Assembly: GCA_016932855.1 (NCBI GenBank)
Contig: JAFGCB010000025.1
Location: forward strand, 13,868-77,867
DNA from: Candidatus Omnitrophota bacterium
GTDB lineage: Bacteria; Omnitrophota; Gorgyraeia; Duberdicusellales; Duberdicusellaceae
Reading direction: 5' to 3'
Length of the DNA stretch: 64,000 nucleotides
Numbering within the stretch: position 1 is the stretch's first letter; every line of letters begins with the position of its first letter. The notes beneath the pieces were generated by a model, which was given only the letters and a program-made list of their open reading frames with translations, searched no databases and was not told where the DNA came from. Below, piece after piece: positions 2,265 through 46,659 of the stretch. Made by a program: the position numbers and the translations under genes.

Positions 2265-3874
2265 TTAGAGCCATGTCGATAAGCAGATTATTAACCCGGA
2301 AAACGCGCCGAGAGTTTAAAGATTTAACCGAGGTATTGTCCTATCAGGCGGAATACAGCCCTAGTAAGCCTTTCATAATATTCGGCCAGAAGAGGATAAC
2401 TTTTAAAGAACTGGATTTTTCAGCCGGTCGACTCGCCGCTTTTTTATCTCTTCAAGGCGTAGCAAAAGGCGACAGGGTCTGCCTTTGGATGTACAACTGC
2501 CCGGAGTTTGTCATTTCTTATTTCGCGATTCTCAAATTAGGCGCGACTGTGGTCCCGATTAATAATATGTTTAAGCGGGAAGAAGCAAAATATATCATTG
2601 AAGATGCGGAGTGCGGAGTTCTGCTGTTTTCGCCGGAGAAAATCGAAGATTGCCTGAATTTAAACTTAAGGGTAGCAAGCCTTGATAAGATTATATCTTT
2701 TTCTTTCAGCAAGGAAGTTTACCCGGAGGTCGCCGACTTGTATGAGGCAATAGATAATAATGAGGTTCTTGGTGAAAAGGCCGAAATCGACCCTGATGAT
2801 CTTGCTGAAATCCTGTATACTTCCGGAACTACCGGAAAGCCTAAGGGAGCGTGTCTTAGCCACAAGAATCTGATTTCCAATGTTGAAGATTGCCGGGTTA
2901 TTATCAGGGCAACCGCCAAAGATACCTTTATATGTTTTTTGCCTTTATTCCATTCTTTTGCATCTACGGTCTGCATGCTTTTTCCTTTGTATGTAGGCAG
3001 TTCCACGGTAATCTTTAGGGCAATAAGGCCTTTTAAACGGGTCTTAAGAAGTATCCGTAAAAACCGGATAACTATATTCGTGGGAGTGCCTTCCATATAT
3101 TCCCTTTTGAAGGATATGAAGCTGCCTTGGATTTTAACGACGTTGCTTAGGCCTTTATTTATTCCTTTACGCGTATGTATTTCAGGAGCCGCCGCTCTTC
3201 CTGTTAATGTCGCACCTGTATTCGAAAGGAAATTAAAAGTCCCTCTTTTAGAAGGTTACGGCTTAACCGAGACCTCTCCGGTAGCTACTCTAAACCCTTT
3301 GAGGGGAGAGCGAAAACCCGGTTCGATCGGCCTGGCCTTACCTTCAGTAGAACTTAAGGTTGTAAATCGCAGCGGAGAGCCGCTTGAAAGAGGCGAAATC
3401 GGAGAGCTTTTAATAAAAGGGCCTAATGTAATGAAAGGTTATTTTAAGATGGAGCAGGCTTCAGCCGAGGTTATCGAGAAAGGCTTTCTTCATACCGGCG
3501 ATTTAGCCAGAATAGACAACCAGGGTTATGTTTATATTGAGGGCCGGATAAAAGAGATGATAAACGTAAGAGGTTTGAATGTCTACCCTAAAGAGATAGA
3601 GGATGTTTTGTATCAACTTACCTTTGTTAAAGAAGCCGCGGTCGTGGGCGTAAATCACCCTAAGAAAGGGGAGGTTCCTATAGGGTTCGTGGTTCTTAAG
3701 GATAACCAAACAAGCGACTCCGGACAGATTCTTAAGTTCTTAAGAGAGCATTTAGCTCCCTTTAAAGTGCCCTTAAGAATAGAATTCCGCGATAATCTTC
3801 CTAAAAACACCACCGGCAAGATTTTAAAATACGTTCTCAAGCAGCAGCTAGAAGCAGCGTTATTCAGCCGCTAA
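2261..3874 (+). CDS. AMP-dependent synthetase/ligase (acyl-CoA synthetase family)
   Basis: 537 aa with the YTSGTTGKPKG AMP-binding motif and a C-terminal GKILK motif. The start overlaps the upstream stop (ATGA). Confidence 0.85.
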   Translation: MIRAMSISRLLTRKTRREFKDLTEVLSYQAEYSPSKPFIIFGQKRITFKELDFSAGRLAAFLSLQGVAKGDRVCLWMYNCPEFVISYFAILKLGATVVPINNMFKREEAKYIIEDAECGVLLFSPEKIEDCLNLNLRVASLDKIISFSFSKEVYPEVADLYEAIDNNEVLGEKAEIDPDDLAEILYTSGTTGKPKGACLSHKNLISNVEDCRVIIRATAKDTFICFLPLFHSFASTVCMLFPLYVGSSTVIFRAIRPFKRVLRSIRKNRITIFVGVPSIYSLLKDMKLPWILTTLLRPLFIPLRVCISGAAALPVNVAPVFERKLKVPLLEGYGLTETSPVATLNPLRGERKPGSIGLALPSVELKVVNRSGEPLERGEIGELLIKGPNVMKGYFKMEQASAEVIEKGFLHTGDLARIDNQGYVYIEGRIKEMINVRGLNVYPKEIEDVLYQLTFVKEAAVVGVNHPKKGEVPIGFVVLKDNQTSDSGQILKFLREHLAPFKVPLRIEFRDNLPKNTTGKILKYVLKQQLEAALFSR

Positions 3875-6778: not shown

Positions 6779-7969
6779 ATGTTTTCAGAAATAGCCCAAA
6801 GTATAAGTCCTTCAATGACCCTTGCGATTTCAACTAAAGCCAAGGTTATGAAGGCCCAGGGTTTGGATGTTGTTGGATTCGGAGCAGGCGAACCTGATTT
6901 TGATACGCCTTTGCGCATAAAAGAAGCAGCTAAAAAAGCAATTGACCAGGGCTATACCAAATATACTCCGGCTTCAGGCATGCCCCAGCTTAAAGAAGCC
7001 ATAGTAAAGAAATTTAATAAAGAAAACGGTCTTAGCTACCAGCTTGATGAGATATTAGTCGGCTGCGGAGCAAAGCACGTTATTTCTGAAATAATCTTTT
7101 GTTTAGTCAATGCCGGCGACGAGGTAATAATCCCGGCTCCTTACTGGGTCAGTTATCCTGAGATGGTAAAGCTTTGCGGAGGAGTAAGTGTTTTTGTCAA
7201 ATCCACTCAAGAGGATAATTTTAAGATAACCGCCGGGATGCTTAAGGAGAAAATAACTAATAAAACAAAACTTTTAATCTTAAATTCGCCTTCCAATCCT
7301 ACCGGAGCGGTATATAGCCGGGCTGAGCTTAAGGCCCTAGCCCAAGTAATAGAGGAAGAAAAGATTTATTGTATTTCCGATGAGATATACGAAAAGTTAG
7401 TCTATGATAATGCAGAGCATGTAAGCATTGCTGGTTTTTCCAGGGGTTTAAAAGATAAGACCATCGTTATAAACGGAGTATCCAAGGCCTATTCTATGAC
7501 CGGTTGGCGCATAGGTTATGCCGGGGGTGCAAAACAGATAATAAAGATAGCTTCAAGCGTCCAATCTCATACAACTTCAAATCCTACGTCTATTTCGCAA
7601 ATTGCAGCCATTGAAGCCCTCCAAGGCCCGCAAGATGAAGTCGCTGAAATGAAGGGGGAATTCGAAAAGCGAAGAGGCTATTTAGTTGAGAAAATCGGCA
7701 GTATAAAAGGCTTAACCTGCATAAAACCCCAGGGTGCCTTTTACAGCTTTGTGGATATTTCCAAGCTGCTGGGTAAAAAATCTAATGGGGCTGAGATAAA
7801 AGGATCACTTTCCTTTTCCGAAATTCTTTTAAATGAAGCAAAGGTCGCGGTAGTTCCCGGGATTGCCTTCGGAGACGATAATTTCGTGAGGCTTTCCTAC
7901 GCGATTTCAATGGAAACGATGAAAAAAGGTTTGGATAGGATAGAGGAGTTTGTGGGAGGATTAAAATGA
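6779..7969 (+). CDS. Class I pyridoxal-phosphate aminotransferase (aspartate aminotransferase-like)
   Basis: 396 aa with SKAYSMTGWRIGY (PLP lysine context) and a NPTG motif. Confidence 0.85.
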   Translation: MFSEIAQSISPSMTLAISTKAKVMKAQGLDVVGFGAGEPDFDTPLRIKEAAKKAIDQGYTKYTPASGMPQLKEAIVKKFNKENGLSYQLDEILVGCGAKHVISEIIFCLVNAGDEVIIPAPYWVSYPEMVKLCGGVSVFVKSTQEDNFKITAGMLKEKITNKTKLLILNSPSNPTGAVYSRAELKALAQVIEEEKIYCISDEIYEKLVYDNAEHVSIAGFSRGLKDKTIVINGVSKAYSMTGWRIGYAGGAKQIIKIASSVQSHTTSNPTSISQIAAIEALQGPQDEVAEMKGEFEKRRGYLVEKIGSIKGLTCIKPQGAFYSFVDISKLLGKKSNGAEIKGSLSFSEILLNEAKVAVVPGIAFGDDNFVRLSYAISMETMKKGLDRIEEFVGGLK

Positions 7970-7970
7970 G

Positions 7971-8117
7971 GTCACAACTTACGGAATGAAATGACGTAAG
8001 CTGCTTGACCGAACTTAACCCCGCACCTTTGTCTTATTCGCTTCGCGATGAATAGTTCAAAGGCGCGGGGTTTAATCCGACCATATGATTTACGTCACCC
8101 TTAGGGTTCCGTAAAAC
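7971..8117. repeat. About 145-nt nested palindromic element filling the whole intergenic gap. Family termini TACGGAAT...TTACGTCACCC, with an inner 14-bp inverted repeat.
   Basis: Left arm tacggaatgaaatgacgtaagc (7980-8002) is the reverse complement of the right arm tttacgtcaccc...ttccgta (8088-8113). Inner inverted repeat aaccccgcaccttt / aaaggcgcggggttt (8027-8073). Motifs are shared with 42561-42617, 46561-46618 and the valS inserts. Confidence 0.5.
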
Positions 8118-8141
8118 ATGGTTTCATTAAAGGAGGTAATG

Positions 8142-9374
8142 ATGCCGAGGATTTATATTATTGATGTGACTAATCGGGACGGGGTGCAGACTTCCCGAAT
8201 TTGTTTATCCAAATTAGAAAAAACTATAATTAACATTTACCTTAATAACTTCGGAGTCTTCCAGAGCGAATTCGGTTTTCCCTTCACTCACCACGAGATT
8301 AACTATTTAAACGCTAATTTGGAGTTGGCTGAAATGAAAGTTATATCTCCCATGCGTTTGGGCGGCTGGGTAAGGGCTATTCCCGGGGATATCGAATTAG
8401 CCTTTAAGAATGTCCCTAAGATCAAGTATTTGAATCTTTCGATTTCTACATCGGCTCAGATGATAAAGCATAAATTTCAAGGTAAGCTTGCCGAGAAAGA
8501 TGTGATAAAGGCTATGCAAAAATCAGTCAACTTAGCCCTTCAAAAGGGCGGTCGTCAACTGGGCGTTAATGCCGAAGATGCCTCACGAACGGATTTAAAA
8601 TACTTAATCGAGTTTGCTCTGGCTGCGAAAGAAGCGGGAGCTAGTCGAATAAGATATTGTGACACATTGGGTTACGACTCACCATTCTCCATTTACCAAC
8701 GAGTAACGACTCTAGCCGAAAAAGTAAAAATCCCTATTGAGCTTCATTGTCACAATGATTTAGGCCTGGCTGTGGCTAATTCACTTTCAGGGGCAAAAGC
8801 TGCTCTTGATGCCGGAGTTGACGCTTACATAAATACCTGCGTAAACGGGGTTGGCGAAAGAGCCGGTAATGCTGATATTGTTTCGGTAGTACTCGCGATT
8901 ATGTACTCGCAGGGGATTGAAAAAAAATACAAGCTAGGCGAAGGAATAAAATTGGATGTGGCCTGGCGGATGTGCAAATATGCCTCATATGCTTTAAATA
9001 TTCCCATCCCCATAAATCAGCCGGGAATAGGCGCTAATGCTTTTGCTCATGAATCAGGCATTCACGCTGACGGCGCTTTAAAGAACCGGCGTAACTACGA
9101 GCTCTATGATTATGAAGATTTAGGACGCGGCGAGCCTGAGATTATTGATACCGGTAGACAAATTACTGTCGGTGAATACTCGGGGATTAAAGGTTTTAGA
9201 AACGTCTATGCGAAGCTGGCAGTAAAGTTTAGGGATGATAGAGAAGCCGCGGAGGTCTTAGAGCTTGCCCGATACGCCAACGTCCATAATCAAAAGCCTC
9301 TGGTTAATGAGGAGCTTAGATTTATTGCTAAATATCCGAAAATAGCCAAAAAGATTTTTCAGATGTCCTGTTGA
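8142..9374 (+). CDS. LeuA/HMG-CoA-lyase-like DRE-TIM metallolyase (2-isopropylmalate / homocitrate / citramalate synthase family, no regulatory domain)
   Basis: HCHNDLGLAVANS motif and N-terminal IIDVTNRDGVQ. Start moved from 8118 to the ATG 5 nt after the AAGGAGG site; the 8118 ATG lies inside the palindromic element. Confidence 0.6.
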   Translation: MPRIYIIDVTNRDGVQTSRICLSKLEKTIINIYLNNFGVFQSEFGFPFTHHEINYLNANLELAEMKVISPMRLGGWVRAIPGDIELAFKNVPKIKYLNLSISTSAQMIKHKFQGKLAEKDVIKAMQKSVNLALQKGGRQLGVNAEDASRTDLKYLIEFALAAKEAGASRIRYCDTLGYDSPFSIYQRVTTLAEKVKIPIELHCHNDLGLAVANSLSGAKAALDAGVDAYINTCVNGVGERAGNADIVSVVLAIMYSQGIEKKYKLGEGIKLDVAWRMCKYASYALNIPIPINQPGIGANAFAHESGIHADGALKNRRNYELYDYEDLGRGEPEIIDTGRQITVGEYSGIKGFRNVYAKLAVKFRDDREAAEVLELARYANVHNQKPLVNEELRFIAKYPKIAKKIFQMSC

Positions 9375-10359: not shown

Positions 10360-11023
10360 GTATTTCGATGTAGTCTTTGAGGATGAATACCTGATAGTCG
10401 TGGATAAAAAATCCGGCCTCCTGGTCTTACCTACGCCCAAGAACGAAAAACACACCTTAACCAATCTTTTAAACGAGTATCTGAAAAATAAAAAAGAAAA
10501 AGCCTATCCTTGCCACCGTTTGGACCGGGATACTTCGGGTTTGATAGTCTATGCCAAAGATACCAATAGCCAGCAGGCTATCATGAATCAGTTTAAGGCT
10601 CGCACCTTCAGAAAGAAATACCTGGCTATTGTACAGGGGCGTTTAGTGGATTTTTACGGCGTGATTAAAGGTTATATAAAGGTAAAACAGAAGCCGGAAA
10701 AGTTCGCCGTTACTAAATACAGGGTTTTACGCCGCTTTAAGGGATTCAGTATTCTGGAAGTCGAACCTAAGACCGGAAGAACTAACCAGATCAGGATTCA
10801 TTTAAGCCAGATAGGCCATCCCGTGATAGGCGAGCGCAAGTACGCCTTTGCTAAAGATTGGCCGTTTAAATACAAAAGATTGTGTTTGCATTCCTGCTTT
10901 GCGGAATTTAGGCATCCCATAAGCAATGATTTAGTCAGACTTTTTCGTGATATCCCCGCTGATATGCGCGAATTTCTTAAAGAGCGGGGCCTGGATGTCA
11001 GGTTGAACAGAAGGCGGCGGTAA
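10343..11023 (+). CDS. RluA-family pseudouridine synthase
   Basis: HRLDRDTSGLIVYAK catalytic-Asp motif, 226 aa. Confidence 0.85.
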   Translation: MLMEIKYFDVVFEDEYLIVVDKKSGLLVLPTPKNEKHTLTNLLNEYLKNKKEKAYPCHRLDRDTSGLIVYAKDTNSQQAIMNQFKARTFRKKYLAIVQGRLVDFYGVIKGYIKVKQKPEKFAVTKYRVLRRFKGFSILEVEPKTGRTNQIRIHLSQIGHPVIGERKYAFAKDWPFKYKRLCLHSCFAEFRHPISNDLVRLFRDIPADMREFLKERGLDVRLNRRRR

Positions 11024-21515: not shown

Positions 21516-21609
21516 AAAACGTTTTCATAAAAGTGTATGCACCCCTTGATTTTTCCTTAACGGTATGTTACACTAGTATGGTTAGCTTTTACCACGGTTA
21601 ACCAAAAAA

Positions 21610-21656
21610 TTTAGCAGGATAAAGGAAGTAGAAATACTTCCTTTTTTTATTGCCTT
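21610..21656 (+). terminator. Terminator-like repeat copy 1 (caggataaagg, 8-bp hairpin, T7, attgcct)
   Basis: aggaagta gaaa tacttcct followed by ttttttt. Direct repeat of 21748-21792. Confidence 0.45.
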
Positions 21657-21747
21657 GATTATCTTAAGGCTGGGTAGTTTCGGCAGGTAGAGTAAAGAAA
21701 GCCTTTACAGCCGCCTTTAATAAGGCTGGCCGAATTGAAAACAGGGA

Positions 21748-21792
21748 TTTAACAGGATAAAGGCAGAAGAACTCTGCCTTTTTTTATTGCCT
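21748..21792 (+). terminator. Terminator-like repeat copy 2
   Basis: aggcaga agaac tctgcct followed by ttttttt. Flanks are the same as copy 1, but the stem differs by compensatory changes. Confidence 0.45.
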
Positions 21793-25564: not shown

Positions 25565-25640
25565 TCGGGAGGTGGCGCAGTCTGGATTAGCGCACTTGAA
25601 TGGGGTTCAAGGGGTCGTGGGTTCGAATCCCACCCTCCCG
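25565..25640 (+). tRNA. tRNA-Pro (anticodon GGG)
   Basis: Manual fold: acceptor CGGGAGG/CCTCCCG, D-stem GCGC, anticodon stem CTTGA/TCAAG with loop ATGGGGT (U33, GGG, G37), T-arm GTGGG TTCGAAT CCCAC, discriminator A. CCA is not encoded. Confidence 0.8.
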
Positions 25641-25726
25641 ACATAGAAAATAAATATTAAAAATCAAAAATCAAAAACTGATTTTTGAGTTTGTCCTTTA
25701 AGGGACATAGCGCAAGGGAGGTTGTT

Positions 25727-35468: not shown

Positions 35469-35523
35469 ATAGCCAGTCCTAAAAACCTTGACTAGGCCTA
35501 CCTTATATTGTAAAGTATTTCCT

Positions 35524-38304
35524 ATGCAATCCCAATACGAACCCAAGAAAACCGAGGAAAAGTGGTATAGTTTCTGGCAGGAGAAGAGTCTGTTCGACGC
35601 TAAGATAAACCCCAAGAAAAAACCTTACTGCATAGTTATACCTCCTCCTAACATCACCGGAATCTTGCATATGGGCCATGCTTTAAATAACACTATCCAG
35701 GACGTACTTATACGCTATAAGAGGATGAAAGGATACGAGTCTTTGTGGATGCCGGGAACAGACCATGCCGGAATCGCCACTCAAAATGTCGTGGAGAGGT
35801 CTTTAGCCCAGGAAGGCCTCAGGAAAGAGGATATCGGCAGAGATAAATTCTTAGAGCGTTTATGGGGCTGGACTGATGAATATGGCTCAACCATAATAAA
35901 TCAGCTTAAGAAATTAGGCACCAGCTGCGACTTTAAAAGAACCCGCTTTACTATGGACGAAGGTTATTCCGAGGCAGTAAAAGAAGTATTTGTCAGGCTT
36001 TACGAGAAAGGCCTTATTTACAAGGGTAATTATATAATAAATTGGTGCCCTAGATGCAAGACTGCCCTGGCTGATGAAGAGGCCCCTCATAAAGAGATCG
36101 ACGGTTGGCTTTATTATATTAAATATCCTGTAAAGGCACAAGGTCGCCCCGTAAAACCGCCTCGCGGCCAGGCGGCAAGCAAAGTCACAAAGTCACCGGT
36201 TCCGGATTATATCGTGGTTGCTACGACCAGGCCGGAGACAATGCTCGGGGATACAGCAGTCGCTATAAACCCTAAAGATAAAAGATATAAATTTTTAAAG
36301 AATTGCGAAGTCACTCTTCCGATAATCGAGAGAAATCTTAAGGTAGTTGAGGATAATATGGTTGAGGTTTCTTTCGGGACAGGTGTGGTTAAGGTTACCC
36401 CGGCTCACGATAAAAATGACTATCTTATGGCGAGGAAGCATGATCTTGAATTTGTGAATATAATGCGGGATGACGCCGTATTAAACGAAAATGCGGCTGA
36501 GTTTGCCGGAATGGACCGCTTCGAAGGACGCCAGGCACTTTTGGAGGTACTTCAAGCCAAGGGACTTTTAGATAAAAAGGAGCCTTATAAGTTGAGCGCC
36601 GGCCATTGCTACAGATGTCATACTATAATTGAGCCCAGGCTTTCAACTCAGTGGTTCGTCCGGATGAAGCCTTTGGCAAAGCCGGCAATAAAGGCAGTCA
36701 GGGATAATAAGGTAAGGTTTTATCCCCAACGCTGGAGAAAAGTTTATCTTAATTGGATGCAGAATATAGAAGATTGGTGTATATCCCGTCAGATATGGTG
36801 GGGGCATAGGCTGCCGGTTTATTACTGTAATAACTGCTTAGGGCAAACCGGCAGTAAATCCCAAATCCCAAAAGGTAATAAGAAAGGGGTTATCGTTTCC
36901 GGGATAAGGCCGGAGAAATGTCCGGAGTGCGGTTCGAAGAAGCTGGTTCAGGAAGAGGATGTTTTGGACACTTGGTTTTCTTCCTGGCTTTGGCCTTTTG
37001 CTACCTTCGGCTGGCCCTTCAATGAGTCACAAAGTCACCCCGTAAAACCGCCTCAGGGCCAGGCGGCAAGTAAAGTCACAAAGTCACAGGATATAAAAAG
37101 GCAGAGAGAAGAGTTTAATTACTTTTATCCTACGGATGTGCTGGTGACTGCGTCGGAGATTCTTTTTTTCTGGGTCGCCAGAATGATTATGGCCGGTCTT
37201 CAGTTTATAGGCAAGGTGCCTTTCAAGGATGTATTAATTCACGGGACCGTAAGGGACATACGGGGGGTAAAGATGTCCAAATCCCTGGGCAATGTAATTG
37301 ACCCTCTTGAAATAATAGATAAATTCGGGGCTGATGCTCTTCGTTTTTCTTTAATGCTTCTGGTTTCCTCCGGGCAGGATGCCTATTTGTCCGAAGAGAA
37401 GTTTCTGGTAGGAAGAAATTTCGCCAATAAACTCTGGAATGCTACACGCTATATTCTTTCCCGCGTACCGCGTACCGCGTGCCGCGTGCCGAGACTAAAT
37501 AGAAAAGATTTAAGTCTGGCTGATAAATGGATACTTAGTGAATTAAATATTCTTATAAAAGAGACAACTTCTAATTTCGAGAAATTCAGGATGGATGAGG
37601 TAGCCAAGTCTATTTACGATTTTTTCTGGCACAAGCTCTGCGATTGGTATATCGAAATAAGCAAGGTAGAAAAAGACAAGAATAAAGAAAATCTGCTTAT
37701 TTTTGTTCTGGATACGGTTCTGCGGCTTTTGCATCCGGTAATGCCGTTTATCACTGAGGAAGTTTGGCAGAAAATAAACTCCTCTAAAAAACAGGGAAGT
37801 CTAATGGTATCGGAGTGGCCGGCCGGGCTAAAAATAAAGGCGCTTAAGTCGGAAATAGACAGCTTTTTAGCGCTTAAGGAGCTTATTATTTCCCTAAGGT
37901 CTTTTAAGAAAGATTTGGGCCTTTACGAGCGCATAGAGATGATGGTAGGTTCAGGGGATAAGAGACGCTCGCGCGTCTTAAAGGACAATCTAGAGTGGGT
38001 GTCATTTCTTGCCCGGGCAAATATCGTTATAGGAAAAACTTCCTGTAAAGAATCTATTTCAACCGCAAATAAGGACTTTGATATTTCCCTGTCCCGTGAA
38101 TTTATAAAAGATGCGGATATTCACAAGAGGAAGATTGAGAAGAAAATAGAAGAGCTGTCAGGAGTAATCACCTCTCAGAAGAATAAGCTTTCTAATTCAT
38201 CATTCGTAAAAAAGGCACCCCAGGAAGTTGTAAGCGGGGTTAGAGAGAAAGTTAAGGTTTGTTTAGACGAAAGAGAAAGGCTTAAGAGGATACGATGGTC
38301 ATAA
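35524..38304 (+). CDS. valS: Valyl-tRNA synthetase, carrying in-frame repeat insertions
   Basis: HIGH-type PPPNITGILHMGH, KMSKS, editing domain and C-terminal coiled coil. Start set at MQSQYEPKK by comparison with the canonical ValS N-terminus. Confidence 0.95.
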   Translation: MQSQYEPKKTEEKWYSFWQEKSLFDAKINPKKKPYCIVIPPPNITGILHMGHALNNTIQDVLIRYKRMKGYESLWMPGTDHAGIATQNVVERSLAQEGLRKEDIGRDKFLERLWGWTDEYGSTIINQLKKLGTSCDFKRTRFTMDEGYSEAVKEVFVRLYEKGLIYKGNYIINWCPRCKTALADEEAPHKEIDGWLYYIKYPVKAQGRPVKPPRGQAASKVTKSPVPDYIVVATTRPETMLGDTAVAINPKDKRYKFLKNCEVTLPIIERNLKVVEDNMVEVSFGTGVVKVTPAHDKNDYLMARKHDLEFVNIMRDDAVLNENAAEFAGMDRFEGRQALLEVLQAKGLLDKKEPYKLSAGHCYRCHTIIEPRLSTQWFVRMKPLAKPAIKAVRDNKVRFYPQRWRKVYLNWMQNIEDWCISRQIWWGHRLPVYYCNNCLGQTGSKSQIPKGNKKGVIVSGIRPEKCPECGSKKLVQEEDVLDTWFSSWLWPFATFGWPFNESQSHPVKPPQGQAASKVTKSQDIKRQREEFNYFYPTDVLVTASEILFFWVARMIMAGLQFIGKVPFKDVLIHGTVRDIRGVKMSKSLGNVIDPLEIIDKFGADALRFSLMLLVSSGQDAYLSEEKFLVGRNFANKLWNATRYILSRVPRTACRVPRLNRKDLSLADKWILSELNILIKETTSNFEKFRMDEVAKSIYDFFWHKLCDWYIEISKVEKDKNKENLLIFVLDTVLRLLHPVMPFITEEVWQKINSSKKQGSLMVSEWPAGLKIKALKSEIDSFLALKELIISLRSFKKDLGLYERIEMMVGSGDKRRSRVLKDNLEWVSFLARANIVIGKTSCKESISTANKDFDISLSREFIKDADIHKRKIEKKIEELSGVITSQKNKLSNSSFVKKAPQEVVSGVREKVKVCLDERERLKRIRWS
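36141..36197 (+). repeat. In-frame palindromic repeat copy A inside valS (encodes RPVKPPRGQAASKVTKSP)
   Basis: Differs from copy B (37024-37088) at roughly 5 of 55 positions. Internal hairpin ccgcct..aggcgg. Ends with aaagtcacaaagtcacc. Confidence 0.55.
37024..37088 (+). repeat. In-frame palindromic repeat copy B inside valS (encodes SHPVKPPQGQAASKVTKSQ), flanked by direct agtcacaaagtcac repeats
   Basis: Same 55-nt core as copy A. Shares gtcaccc and ccgtaaaac with the intergenic element at 8088-8117. Confidence 0.55.
37461..37491 (+). repeat. Coding tandem heptamer repeat (ccgcgtr x4) within valS
   Basis: ccgcgta ccgcgta ccgcgtg ccgcgtg, encoding SRVPRTACRVPRL in a loop that is variable in ValS. 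Confidence 0.6.
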
Positions 38305-45397: not shown

Positions 45398-46558
45398 ATG
45401 GCGGAGTGGATAGGTAAAGGCAGACGCGCGCGACGTTGTTATGGATTTGACGAGATAGCTTTAGTTCCCGGGAAAATAACCATAAACCCTGAGGAGGTTG
45501 AGACTTCCTGGCAGTTCGCCGGCAAAAAGTTTGCAGTGCCAATAATCGCAGCGGCAATGGACGGCGTGGTAGATGTCGAGTTTGCAGCGGAAATGTCGCG
45601 GTTAGGGGGGATGGCTATTCTAAATCTGGACGGAGTCCAAACCCGATATGATAATCCCGAGGAAGTGTTAGGGCAAATTATTAAAGCCTCGCCTGAGGAG
45701 GCTACTAACTTGATTCAAAAAATATATACTGCCCCGATAAAAGAGAAGTTGATCTCTAAAAGGATTTCCCAAATTAAAGAAAAAAACGGATTTACCTGTG
45801 TCAGCTGCATTCCCCAGAATGCCCAGAGGTTTGGAGAAATCAGCCAGGAGGCCGGGGTGGATGTTTTTGTTGTTCAATCCACGGTAACCACCAAGACGCA
45901 TATCGCAAAACAATATAAGCCCTTAGACCTTTCAAAATTATGCAGAGAAATGAAAGCCCCGGTAATAATCGGTAATTGCGTAACCTTCGAGGTCACTTTA
46001 GAATTATTGGAGACGGGCTGTGCCGGTGTTTTAATCGGTGTAGGGCCGGGCGCGTCATGTACTACCAGGGGTGTGTTGGGTGTTGGAGTTCCTCAGGTTA
46101 CCGCTACGATTGATTGTTCGGCGGCAAGGGATATTTTTTATAGAAAGACAGGCAAGTACATACCCATTATCACTGACGGCGGCATGCGTACCGGGGGAGA
46201 TGTTTGTAAAGCTTTTGCCTGCGGAGCAGACGCGGTCATGATCGGTTCCAGCCTTGCCAGAGCCAAAGAAGCTCCAGCCAGCGGCTTTCACTGGGGCATG
46301 GCTACTTCGCATTCTAATTTGCCTCGGGGAACAAGAATAAACGTAGGGATTTCCGGTACCCTGGAGCAGATACTTTTTGGTCCAGCCCAGGTCGACGACG
46401 GCTCCCAGAACTTAATGGGAGCTTTAGCCACTTCTATGGGGTGTTTGGGCGTGCGAACGATAAAAGAAATGCATTTTGCCGAAATAATACTTGCTCCTTC
46501 GATACAAACAGAGGGAAAGATATTTCAAGTTGTTCAAAGAGTGGGAATGGGCAAATAA
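45398..46558 (+). CDS. IMP dehydrogenase / GMP reductase family protein lacking the CBS subdomain
   Basis: Catalytic-loop GVGPGASCTTR and 386 aa length. Resembles the CBS-less GuaB-related paralogs. Confidence 0.65.
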   Translation: MAEWIGKGRRARRCYGFDEIALVPGKITINPEEVETSWQFAGKKFAVPIIAAAMDGVVDVEFAAEMSRLGGMAILNLDGVQTRYDNPEEVLGQIIKASPEEATNLIQKIYTAPIKEKLISKRISQIKEKNGFTCVSCIPQNAQRFGEISQEAGVDVFVVQSTVTTKTHIAKQYKPLDLSKLCREMKAPVIIGNCVTFEVTLELLETGCAGVLIGVGPGASCTTRGVLGVGVPQVTATIDCSAARDIFYRKTGKYIPIITDGGMRTGGDVCKAFACGADAVMIGSSLARAKEAPASGFHWGMATSHSNLPRGTRINVGISGTLEQILFGPAQVDDGSQNLMGALATSMGCLGVRTIKEMHFAEIILAPSIQTEGKIFQVVQRVGMGK

Positions 46559-46560
46559 AA

Positions 46561-46618
46561 TCACGGAATTTCTAAACTGCCCTGATCGAAAAAAAAGACA
46601 CTTATTCACGTCACCCCC
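46561..46618. repeat. Short repeat-family copy (cacggaat ... cacgtcaccccc)
   Basis: Termini match the ends of the 7971-8117 element at 8/9 and 9/10 positions, with a different A-rich interior. Confidence 0.4.
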
Positions 46619-46630
46619 TGAATTATCGCA

Positions 46631-46659
46631 TATAACAATATAACAATATAACAATATAT
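46631..46659 (+). repeat. Tandem octamer ataacaat x3 immediately upstream of the dnaE ATG
   Basis: tataacaatataacaatataacaatatat. No SD is visible. Confidence 0.6.

Follow-up and report, generated by a model that had tools for sequence, protein, structure and literature searches.

Two in-frame copies of a short octamer-flanked repeat in the valS gene of an Omnitrophota bacterium

The 64,000-nt stretch of DNA analysed here (the window; contig JAFGCB010000025.1, positions 13,868 to 77,867) comes from a metagenome-assembled genome (MAG) of a Candidatus Omnitrophota bacterium (GCA_016932855.1) and carries, within the valine--tRNA ligase gene valS, two in-frame direct copies of a 66-nt composite repeat. 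In each copy, GTCAC-type octamer units (AGTCACAAAGTCAC) stand on either side of a 35-nt GC-rich core. We consider it probable that the segments are paralogs, both copies of one small composite DNA repeat, a micro-repeat that was recently copied, is translated and is tolerated in permissive loops of the encoded enzyme, ValS.

A pair of near-identical repeats lies in frame within valS

The two copies, designated A and B, form the longest direct repeat in the 64-kb window (family D1 of a repeat scan); they are identical at 59/66 positions (89%), and their starts are spaced by 891 nt. This match scores ~97, while shuffled 66-mers compared with the whole window under the same scheme score 24.7 ± 2.6, and the pair is confirmed as real and far beyond chance. 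Both copies are in the valS reading frame and encode the near-identical peptides AQGRPVKPPRGQAASKVTKSP (copy A) and SQSHPVKPPQGQAASKVTKSQ (copy B), as the initial annotation of this DNA had claimed. That annotation had also described a core of ~55 nt with ~90% identity; the identity held (~89%), but the repeated unit is 66 nt long. The gene and the parts of the two copies are as follows.

35524..38304, forward strand: valS (valine--tRNA ligase), host of all intragenic repeats; ATG at 35524, 926 aa
36134..36199, forward strand: copy A, 66-nt composite; residues ~204-226 (AQGRPVKPPRGQAASKVTKSP), N-terminal boundary of the CP1 editing domain
36134-36147, forward strand: left flank of copy A, degenerate octamer AGGCACAAGGTCGC
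36157..36175, forward strand: core hairpin of copy A, CCGCCT-cgcggcc-AGGCGG; 6-bp stem (36157-36162/36170-36175), 7-nt loop
36183-36196, forward strand: right flank of copy A, AGTCACAAAGTCAC
37025..37090, forward strand: copy B, 66-nt composite; residues ~501-523 (SQSHPVKPPQGQAASKVTKSQ), after the GWP motif and before the YFYPTDV strand
37025-37038 and 37074-37087, forward strand: flanks of copy B, perfect direct repeats AGTCACAAAGTCAC
37048..37066, forward strand: core hairpin of copy B, CCGCCT-cagggcc-AGGCGG; 6-bp stem (37048-37053/37061-37066)

The core, CCCGTAAAACCGCCTC(gc/ag)GGCCAGGCGGCAAG(c/t)AA, has a GC content of 0.63, compared with 0.44 for valS. Seven positions differ between the copies, one of them synonymous, and the valS frame is the only one in which copy B is open. 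Direct-repeat flanks had been noticed before for copy B, where they are indeed perfect and the left one is canonical, but copy A is flanked as well, with a degenerate left side (AGGCACAAGGTCGC) that carries three substitutions. Tandem Repeats Finder (TRF) recorded period-8 tandem rows at 36180 and 37072 in the gene.

The hairpin that had led to the description of the repeat as palindromic, CCGCCT/AGGCGG, is present in both copies, but its stem has only 6 bp and its folding energy is unremarkable; it is the sole self-complementarity of a repeat that is barely palindromic. Folded as DNA, copy A reaches a minimum free energy (MFE) of -7.7 kcal/mol (z = 0.06, not exceptional) and copy B one of -6.3 kcal/mol (z = -2.4). 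Within the hairpin, differences between the copies are confined to the loop, and because only the loop varies, the pair offers no covariation evidence or sign of selection for the stem.

Both copies fall into predicted disordered loops of ValS

The 926-aa product starting at ATG 35524 is 100% identical to the deposited protein P0001, 'valine--tRNA ligase [Candidatus Omnitrophica bacterium]'; the length of 938 aa given initially needs an upstream in-frame TTG at 35488 and does not apply to the deposited protein. The product matches the Thermus thermophilus valyl-tRNA synthetase (ValRS) 1GAX with E = 8.8e-213 (phmmer/HMMER), and in the HMMER alignment copies A and B are pure gaps in the 1GAX chain. 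The gap of copy A follows 1GAX residue about 208, just ahead of the CP1 editing domain (the alignment to the editing-domain fragment 1wka begins at query residue 229). Around copy B, query residues 499-528 stand against chain residues 471-473, between the GWP motif and the YFYP strand. The earlier statement that both segments are pure insertions is borne out in that neither has a counterpart in 1GAX.

An AlphaFold2 model of ValS, computed from an alignment of 30 Omnitrophota orthologs, has a mean predicted local distance difference test score (pLDDT) of 81.8 and superposes on 1gax_A with template modelling (TM) scores of 0.79/0.85. Its longest coil stretches with pLDDT<50 are residues 208-223 (copy A), 442-452 and 500-520 (copy B); the four shorter ones elsewhere include 41-44, 79-82 and 586-590. 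Copies A and B are predicted to form disordered loops that protrude from an otherwise canonical ValRS. The proposed position of the inserts in two surface loops of this essential enzyme is supported, as a prediction, by the gaps in 1GAX together with the coils at 208-223 and 500-520.

Short repeats can confuse assemblers, and the window was taken from a MAG. An assembly artefact is nevertheless extremely improbable: on either side of each copy the sequence is colinear with ValS orthologs, without a break in the frame, 7 differences distinguish the copies, and the same phenomenon recurs in independent JGI, NCBI and ENA assemblies.

Comparison with the closest relative points to recent copying of DNA

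The closest relative that we found (locus L130) encodes a ValS with 68% identity and is syntenic with the window over about 20 kb. Between the two valS genes, third codon positions are 41% identical and four-fold-type sites 34%, which is essentially saturated. Because the copies are 89% identical to one another, compared with 41% at third positions between the genomes, the similarity of A and B is the product of recent DNA copying or homogenisation in the window lineage, and not of conserved protein sequence.

The copy-B loop of L130 contains no insert, while its copy-A loop contains GTCACCAGGTCAC-caggtgatccttcgacttcgctcaggacacgccag-GTCACCAGGTCAC, that is, a related octamer around an unrelated core, in the same layout and length class. 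Since an octamer-core-octamer arrangement occupies the copy-A loop of L130 and the copy-B loop is empty, the copy-A site is an older hot spot common to the window lineage and L130. The lineage specificity proposed for the inserts was upheld by this alignment, as the closest ortholog lacks the second insert and, at the first site, holds another core.

The core was found only in the two valS copies

With both copies masked, the best local score remaining in the window was 26, compared with a null of 24.7 ± 2.6, and a blastn-short search of the window with the repeat unit gave no match longer than 11 nt. Degenerate core patterns had 0 matches in 185,579 reference genomes (one genome per species), 0 in 241 million JGI metagenome records and 0 in viral contigs (IMG/VR), and blastn-short of the core had 0 in 1.0 Mb of retrieved loci. 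Searches of 5.8 billion protein clusters with the peptides of both stop-free frames returned one word-sharing candidate each, none of which scored.

The initial annotation had further tied the valS repeat, through common motifs, to intergenic palindromic elements at 7971-8117 and 46561-46618. The words exist (GTCACCC at 8094 and 46610, CCGTAAAAC at 8109), but their occurrence does not rise above chance: the best two-word collinear chain scored 17, compared with a block-shuffle mean of 17.0 ± 1.1, local alignment and blastn-short likewise stayed at shuffle level, and we rejected the kinship. A single family that lands both between genes and inside genes found no support, as neither the window nor the searched collections hold an intergenic or other genic copy of the core. 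The idea that the repeat would recur elsewhere thus fails for the core but holds for its octamer termini, which are dispersed and present in other Omnitrophota. A known RNA family was also considered for the repeat and rejected; the Rfam gathering scan of the window yields only a tRNA.

The region 7965-8125 is a structured intergenic element, separate from and unrelated to the valS repeat. It folds into three consecutive hairpins (RNA MFE -58.7 kcal/mol, z = -5.8), lies between a stop codon and the ribosome-binding site of an HMGL-like (LeuA/CimA-type) open reading frame (ORF) at 8118-9374, and matches no Rfam family at gathering score.

Octamer units and octamer-core composites recur across Omnitrophota

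The exact octamer array GTCACAAAGTCACAAAGTCAC occurs at >120 reference-genome loci, compared with ~0.3 expected (our estimate from the collection size). The proportion of (GTCACAAA)n arrays lying in a long sense ORF was as follows.

Omnitrophota: 17/26 loci
Planctomycetota: 4/11 loci
Bacteroidota: 8/78 loci
Other phyla: 1/15 loci

The arrays obey an orientation rule because the three sense frames of (GTCACAAA)n are all open and the three antisense frames all contain TGA. Intergenic copies of the octamer often form inverted arrays with strong hairpins (for example L001:485-575, z = -5.7). GTCACAAAGTCACAAAGTCAC is also found in many Bacteroidota (matches L003-L122), with at least 10 loci in one LacPavin MAG, as a 117-nt array in an Ignavibacteriae MAG (L115), and, among other phyla, in Planctomycetota, Gemmatimonadota and Acidobacteriota; most of these sites are intergenic.

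When 30 Omnitrophota ValS were aligned, about five hypervariable blocks appeared in the same loops of almost every ortholog; the proteins range from 871 to 980 aa. The inserts often read as translated 7-/8-nt tandem units, and the DNA tandem units behind them were verified for the window (TRF) and for L001. Units and their peptides include the following.

AAAGTCAC: KVTKSQSH
AAATCCC: KSQIPNP
ACAGTCC: TVHSPQS
ATGGACT: MDYGLWT

An exact 6-mer peptide is present in two different loops in 16/120 Omnitrophota ValS, for which we estimate a chance expectation well below 1%, and the families concerned differ between lineages.

Composites were recovered by one pattern from the window, L130, L001 (three), L123 and L127; those of the window, L130, L001 and L127 have cores of 35-44 nt and a GC content of 0.59-0.64. 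L001 belongs to SPRUCE_286, a distant member of the Omnitrophota (ValS 53% identical), whose valS carries three 68-nt composites that are 88-96% identical and have the form (AGTCACAA)2.6 + GTGCGGAGCGAAGCGAAGCCTCCCCGGAGGGGGC + AAAGTCAC. In a metagenome scan, further in-frame copies of the core of these composites were detected: in the same sample in QueC, FolP (Pterin_bind) and a FolC-type Mur ligase, and in other samples in DprA and a GT1 glycosyltransferase. Since this core recurs in QueC, FolP, the FolC-type ligase, DprA and GT1, a copy mechanism acting between unrelated genes exists in Omnitrophota. The hosts use all three sense frames, giving different peptides. We had also considered whether KVTKS might be a duplicated KMSKS-like motif and rejected this; the octamer-encoded peptide is also found in the QueC and FolC hosts.

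Two further observations concern composites and arrays in these relatives. A second core family, CCTTCGACTT(C/G)GCTCAGG(A/G)CA, is common to distant Omnitrophota, with sites in L130 at 10607-10670 (valS loop 1) and in L125 at about 2500-2620 (reverse strand), at the N-terminus of DprA, and it appears in protein P0095 as the peptide HPSFSLRTSKV; this suggests that cores are exchanged or conserved across Omnitrophota lineages. In nadC of SPRUCE_286 (L001), TGCGTTATGCGCCG x2.4 at 8024-8056 and AACGCAAAACGCAT x2.4 at 8220-8253 are mutually reverse-complementary and ~165 nt apart, forming an inverted array pair within the gene.

Set beside the octamer-array/core composite of Omnitrophota, a class defined in this analysis, the window repeat has the flanking octamers, a core within the 35-44-nt range with a GC content of ~0.6, and a sense-oriented, stop-free residence in a loop. 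Dispersal of one core over several genes was seen in SPRUCE_286, while the window core was found only in valS.

Four other accounts of the pair can be weighed against these observations. As the core is known only from the two valS copies, it might have arisen by a one-off duplication within valS, unrelated to any repeat family. We regard this as improbable, given that octamer-core-octamer arrangements with different cores occupy the same ValS loop in L130 and L001, that the layout is also found in other genes elsewhere, that 16/120 orthologs independently repeat a peptide in two loops, and that the octamer on its flanks serves as an array unit across the phylum.

A true miniature mobile element would be the converse case: a genome-dispersed element, akin to Rickettsia palindromic elements (RPEs), miniature transposable elements that have inverted repeats (MITEs) or the REPINs built from repetitive extragenic palindromes (REPs), moved by a transposase in trans and inserted twice independently into valS. 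The SPRUCE_286 analogue, dispersed in at least four unrelated genes at 88-96% identity, needs a genome-wide copy mechanism, and both window copies have the same ends. For the valS pair, however, such an element is unlikely. There is no third copy in the 64 kb, no peptide match in either open frame among 5.8 billion proteins, and searches of reference genomes, of JGI metagenomes and of viral contigs gave no match to the core DNA; the termini are direct rather than inverted repeats and, being identical at both sites, are not target-site duplications; and the stem has only 6 bp.

The inserted peptide could instead be a selected functional module, for example a positively charged tRNA- or partner-binding arm that was recruited twice. 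It is basic (K/R-rich), the enzyme binds nucleic acid, and some insert is present at these loops in nearly all Omnitrophota ValS. We nonetheless give this account little credence. Inserts at the same loop are wholly different in sequence and length, one loop is empty in L130, and the same DNA is read in three frames in other hosts, yielding different peptides; near-identity at synonymous sites points to copying of DNA, and the segments are predicted to be disordered.

Finally, a hairpin flanked by direct repeats has the formal layout of take-off and landing sites, and the segments might be removed or skipped in the mature protein, either by translational bypassing (as in T4 gene 60 or the yeast mitochondrial byps) or as an RNA intervening sequence. 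This is very improbable: the length of the inserts is in every case divisible by three, they are sense-oriented and lack stops in the used frame, copy B is open in no frame but the used one, and family members keep the rule in three frames, which bypassed or spliced elements would not need to do. The window scan also gave no Rfam intron or ribozyme match.

Other tandem arrays mark valS as a hot spot in the window

Two more loops of the window ValS hold tandem arrays.

36856..36872, forward strand: (AAATCCC)x2.4 heptamer array (TRF), third ValS loop, peptide SKSQIPK; pLDDT<50 at 442-452
37461..37491, forward strand: (CCGCGTA)x4.4 heptamer array (TRF score 48, 95% matches), fourth ValS loop, peptide RVPRTACRVPR

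An AAATCC-type array is present at the matching valS loop of L130, and the KSQIP peptide occurs in 11/120 ValS orthologs; the (AAATCCC)x2.4 array is the same class of repeat-seeded loop insert as copies A and B. The (CCGCGTA)x4.4 array falls in a hypervariable block of the ortholog alignment. At ~11900-11940 of L130, in valS loop 4, an unrelated palindromic GC-rich insert (GCCTGCCTGCCG...CAGGCAGGGCAGGC) replaces the CCGCGTA array, and this is a further loop with a lineage-specific, repeat-like filling.

Among 18 genes syntenic with L130, indels of >=6 aa are found only in valS, which makes up 4.4% of the window but contains 4/16 of the period-7/8 TRF rows (binomial p about 0.004, our estimate). 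Elsewhere in the window, an intergenic (AAAATCA)x4.6 array at 25647-25677 lies directly 3' of the tRNA at 25566-25641, an intergenic (ATATAACA)x3.6 array at 46630-46658 lies downstream of a gene ending at 46558, and two terminator-like hairpins at 21609-21647 and 21747-21785 (families D10/D16), 77% identical and 138 nt apart, are followed by T-runs.

Discussion

We propose that short runs of a GTCAC-type octamer microsatellite (AGTCACAA), bracketing a ~35-nt GC-rich core with a weak 6-bp hairpin, make up a composite that would be copied non-autonomously by a homology- or microhomology-driven process, either gene conversion or template switching during replication. The octamer runs would seed the copying, possibly assisted by the hairpin, and no cut-and-paste transposition would take part; we favour this over transposition because inverted termini and target-site duplications are absent, both sites show identical flanks and the copies are very few. 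Selection would then act as a filter through which sense orientation, stop-free frames and permissive loops survive. The inserts would be translated as a flexible Lys/Ser/Thr/Pro/Gln-rich peptide, as their frame and orientation statistics suggest, because a segment that is spliced out or bypassed would have no need of filters on frame, stops and orientation. Near-neutrality of the peptide itself is probable, because orthologs fill the same loop with unrelated sequences and L130 leaves one loop empty. The second copy would most likely have spread within valS, or from a master copy since lost, which we prefer to a dispersed family because the core was not found outside valS; this within-gene spread is the weakest step of the explanation.

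Several points weigh against this account. Translation of the inserts is deduced from frame and orientation statistics, and the copying mechanism is inferred rather than observed. In none of the relatives does the copy-B loop already hold a GTCAC array; this weakens a conversion between arrays, and copy B may have come in as one complete unit instead. Moreover, copy A has three substitutions in its left flank and copy B is canonical, so that A is not obviously the donor. The protein word index requires several shared 5-mers, and diverged in-frame copies could escape it; the searches for intergenic copies covered 64 kb of the MAG, on a contig of 184,839 bp, and such copies may exist elsewhere in the genome.

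For repeats to multiply within essential genes and leave them intact is textbook-rare, and Rickettsia is the standard example. RPEs (Ogata et al. 2000, summarised in PMC10969869) are in-frame repeats in unrelated, often essential metabolic or housekeeping genes, translated into a surface peptide compatible with the fold; they are ~150 bp long, the whole element is a long palindrome, and they group into ten sequence families, with dozens of insertions into ORFs in each genome. Against this description, the valS repeat is alike in its in-frame insertion and in a surface peptide that is predicted to be compatible with the fold. It differs in size (66 nt versus about 100-150 bp), in structure (a 6-bp stem and direct-repeat ends versus a whole-element palindrome) and, so far, in number (two known copies, both in the 64 kb, versus dozens per genome), and it occurs in a different phylum with no sequence relationship. 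The comparison with RPEs drawn in the initial annotation is therefore sound as an analogy of outcome, with DNA of selfish or slippage origin being tolerated in a protein, but not of size or fold (66 nt, a 6-bp stem and direct-repeat ends); overall, its observation was confirmed and its interpretation only partly supported.

In layout only, the closest parallel is with the small dispersed repeats (SDRs) of cyanobacteria: SDRs are ~20-30 nt long, hairpin-bearing and dispersed without an obvious transposase, mainly between genes, with array units on both sides, and in both cases a core is nested in a tandem array of short units. Elhai and colleagues reportedly described, in 2008, cyanobacterial tandem heptamer arrays (short tandemly repeated repetitive sequences, STRRs) with SDRs nested inside. 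The valS-type composites differ in having octamer units, cores of ~35-44 nt and a residence mainly in Omnitrophota coding sequence.

TAACTGA heptamers offer a parallel in distribution: they form arrays in Beggiatoaceae, Cyanobacteria and Bacteroidetes, with no mechanism of transfer known, contain stops, and lie between genes, upstream of start codons (PMC4679880). Like them, (GTCACAAA)n is one specific 7-8-nt unit in distant phyla (Omnitrophota, Planctomycetota, Bacteroidota and others), and in both the stop-codon content of the unit sets the orientation tolerated in genes; GTCACAAA differs in being stop-free in sense and, in Omnitrophota, mostly inside ORFs.

REPs and REPINs are mobilised by REP-associated tyrosine transposases (RAYTs), are extragenic, number in the hundreds, frequently arranged as inverted doublets, and bear GTAG/CGTC tags (PMC3116915, PMC3733652). 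They resemble the valS repeat as short GC-rich hairpin repeats that multiply within a genome, but the latter consists of two intragenic direct copies with starts 891 nt apart, without tags and without further copies in the window. MITEs differ as well, since the termini of the valS repeat are direct repeats of AGTCACAAAGTCAC that are identical at both sites and thus belong to the element and are not target-site duplications. By the features tested, the valS repeat is neither a REP/REPIN nor a MITE.

Lineage-specific insertion loops are familiar in aminoacyl-tRNA synthetases, where ordinary ones are unique sequences. The valS inserts resemble them in position (the CP1 boundary and between the Rossmann halves) and in a core fold that is predicted to be kept, but they differ in being built of genomic repeat units and duplicated between loops.

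Our literature search, in a limited library, found no account of such elements in Omnitrophota, which is no proof of novelty. We tentatively suggest, as a real possibility, that Omnitrophota, and less so Planctomycetota, carry an undescribed class of elements in which stop-free 7-8-nt units bracket interchangeable ~35-44-nt GC-rich cores. These would lie mainly in coding sequence, colonise disordered loops of essential proteins (ValS, QueC, FolP, FolC) and be copied between loci, with core swapping at fixed hot spots, in a way that differs from known transposition; the valS pair would be a private variant of the class.

The outcome matches that in Rickettsia; the phylum is an uncultivated one, and the element is of another kind and much smaller. 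With an 8-nt unit in the flanking microsatellite, every slippage is a potential frameshift in an essential gene, and one and the same protein loop holds different cores in different genomes. For annotation, the composite class would explain the scatter of ValS lengths in Omnitrophota, from 871 to 980 aa. The valS pair alone is a modest curiosity, and the phylum-wide class is the interesting part: if real, it would chart naturally where conserved enzymes tolerate insertions, supply lineage-specific disordered segments rapidly, and offer a tractable case of very short DNA being copied without a transposase.

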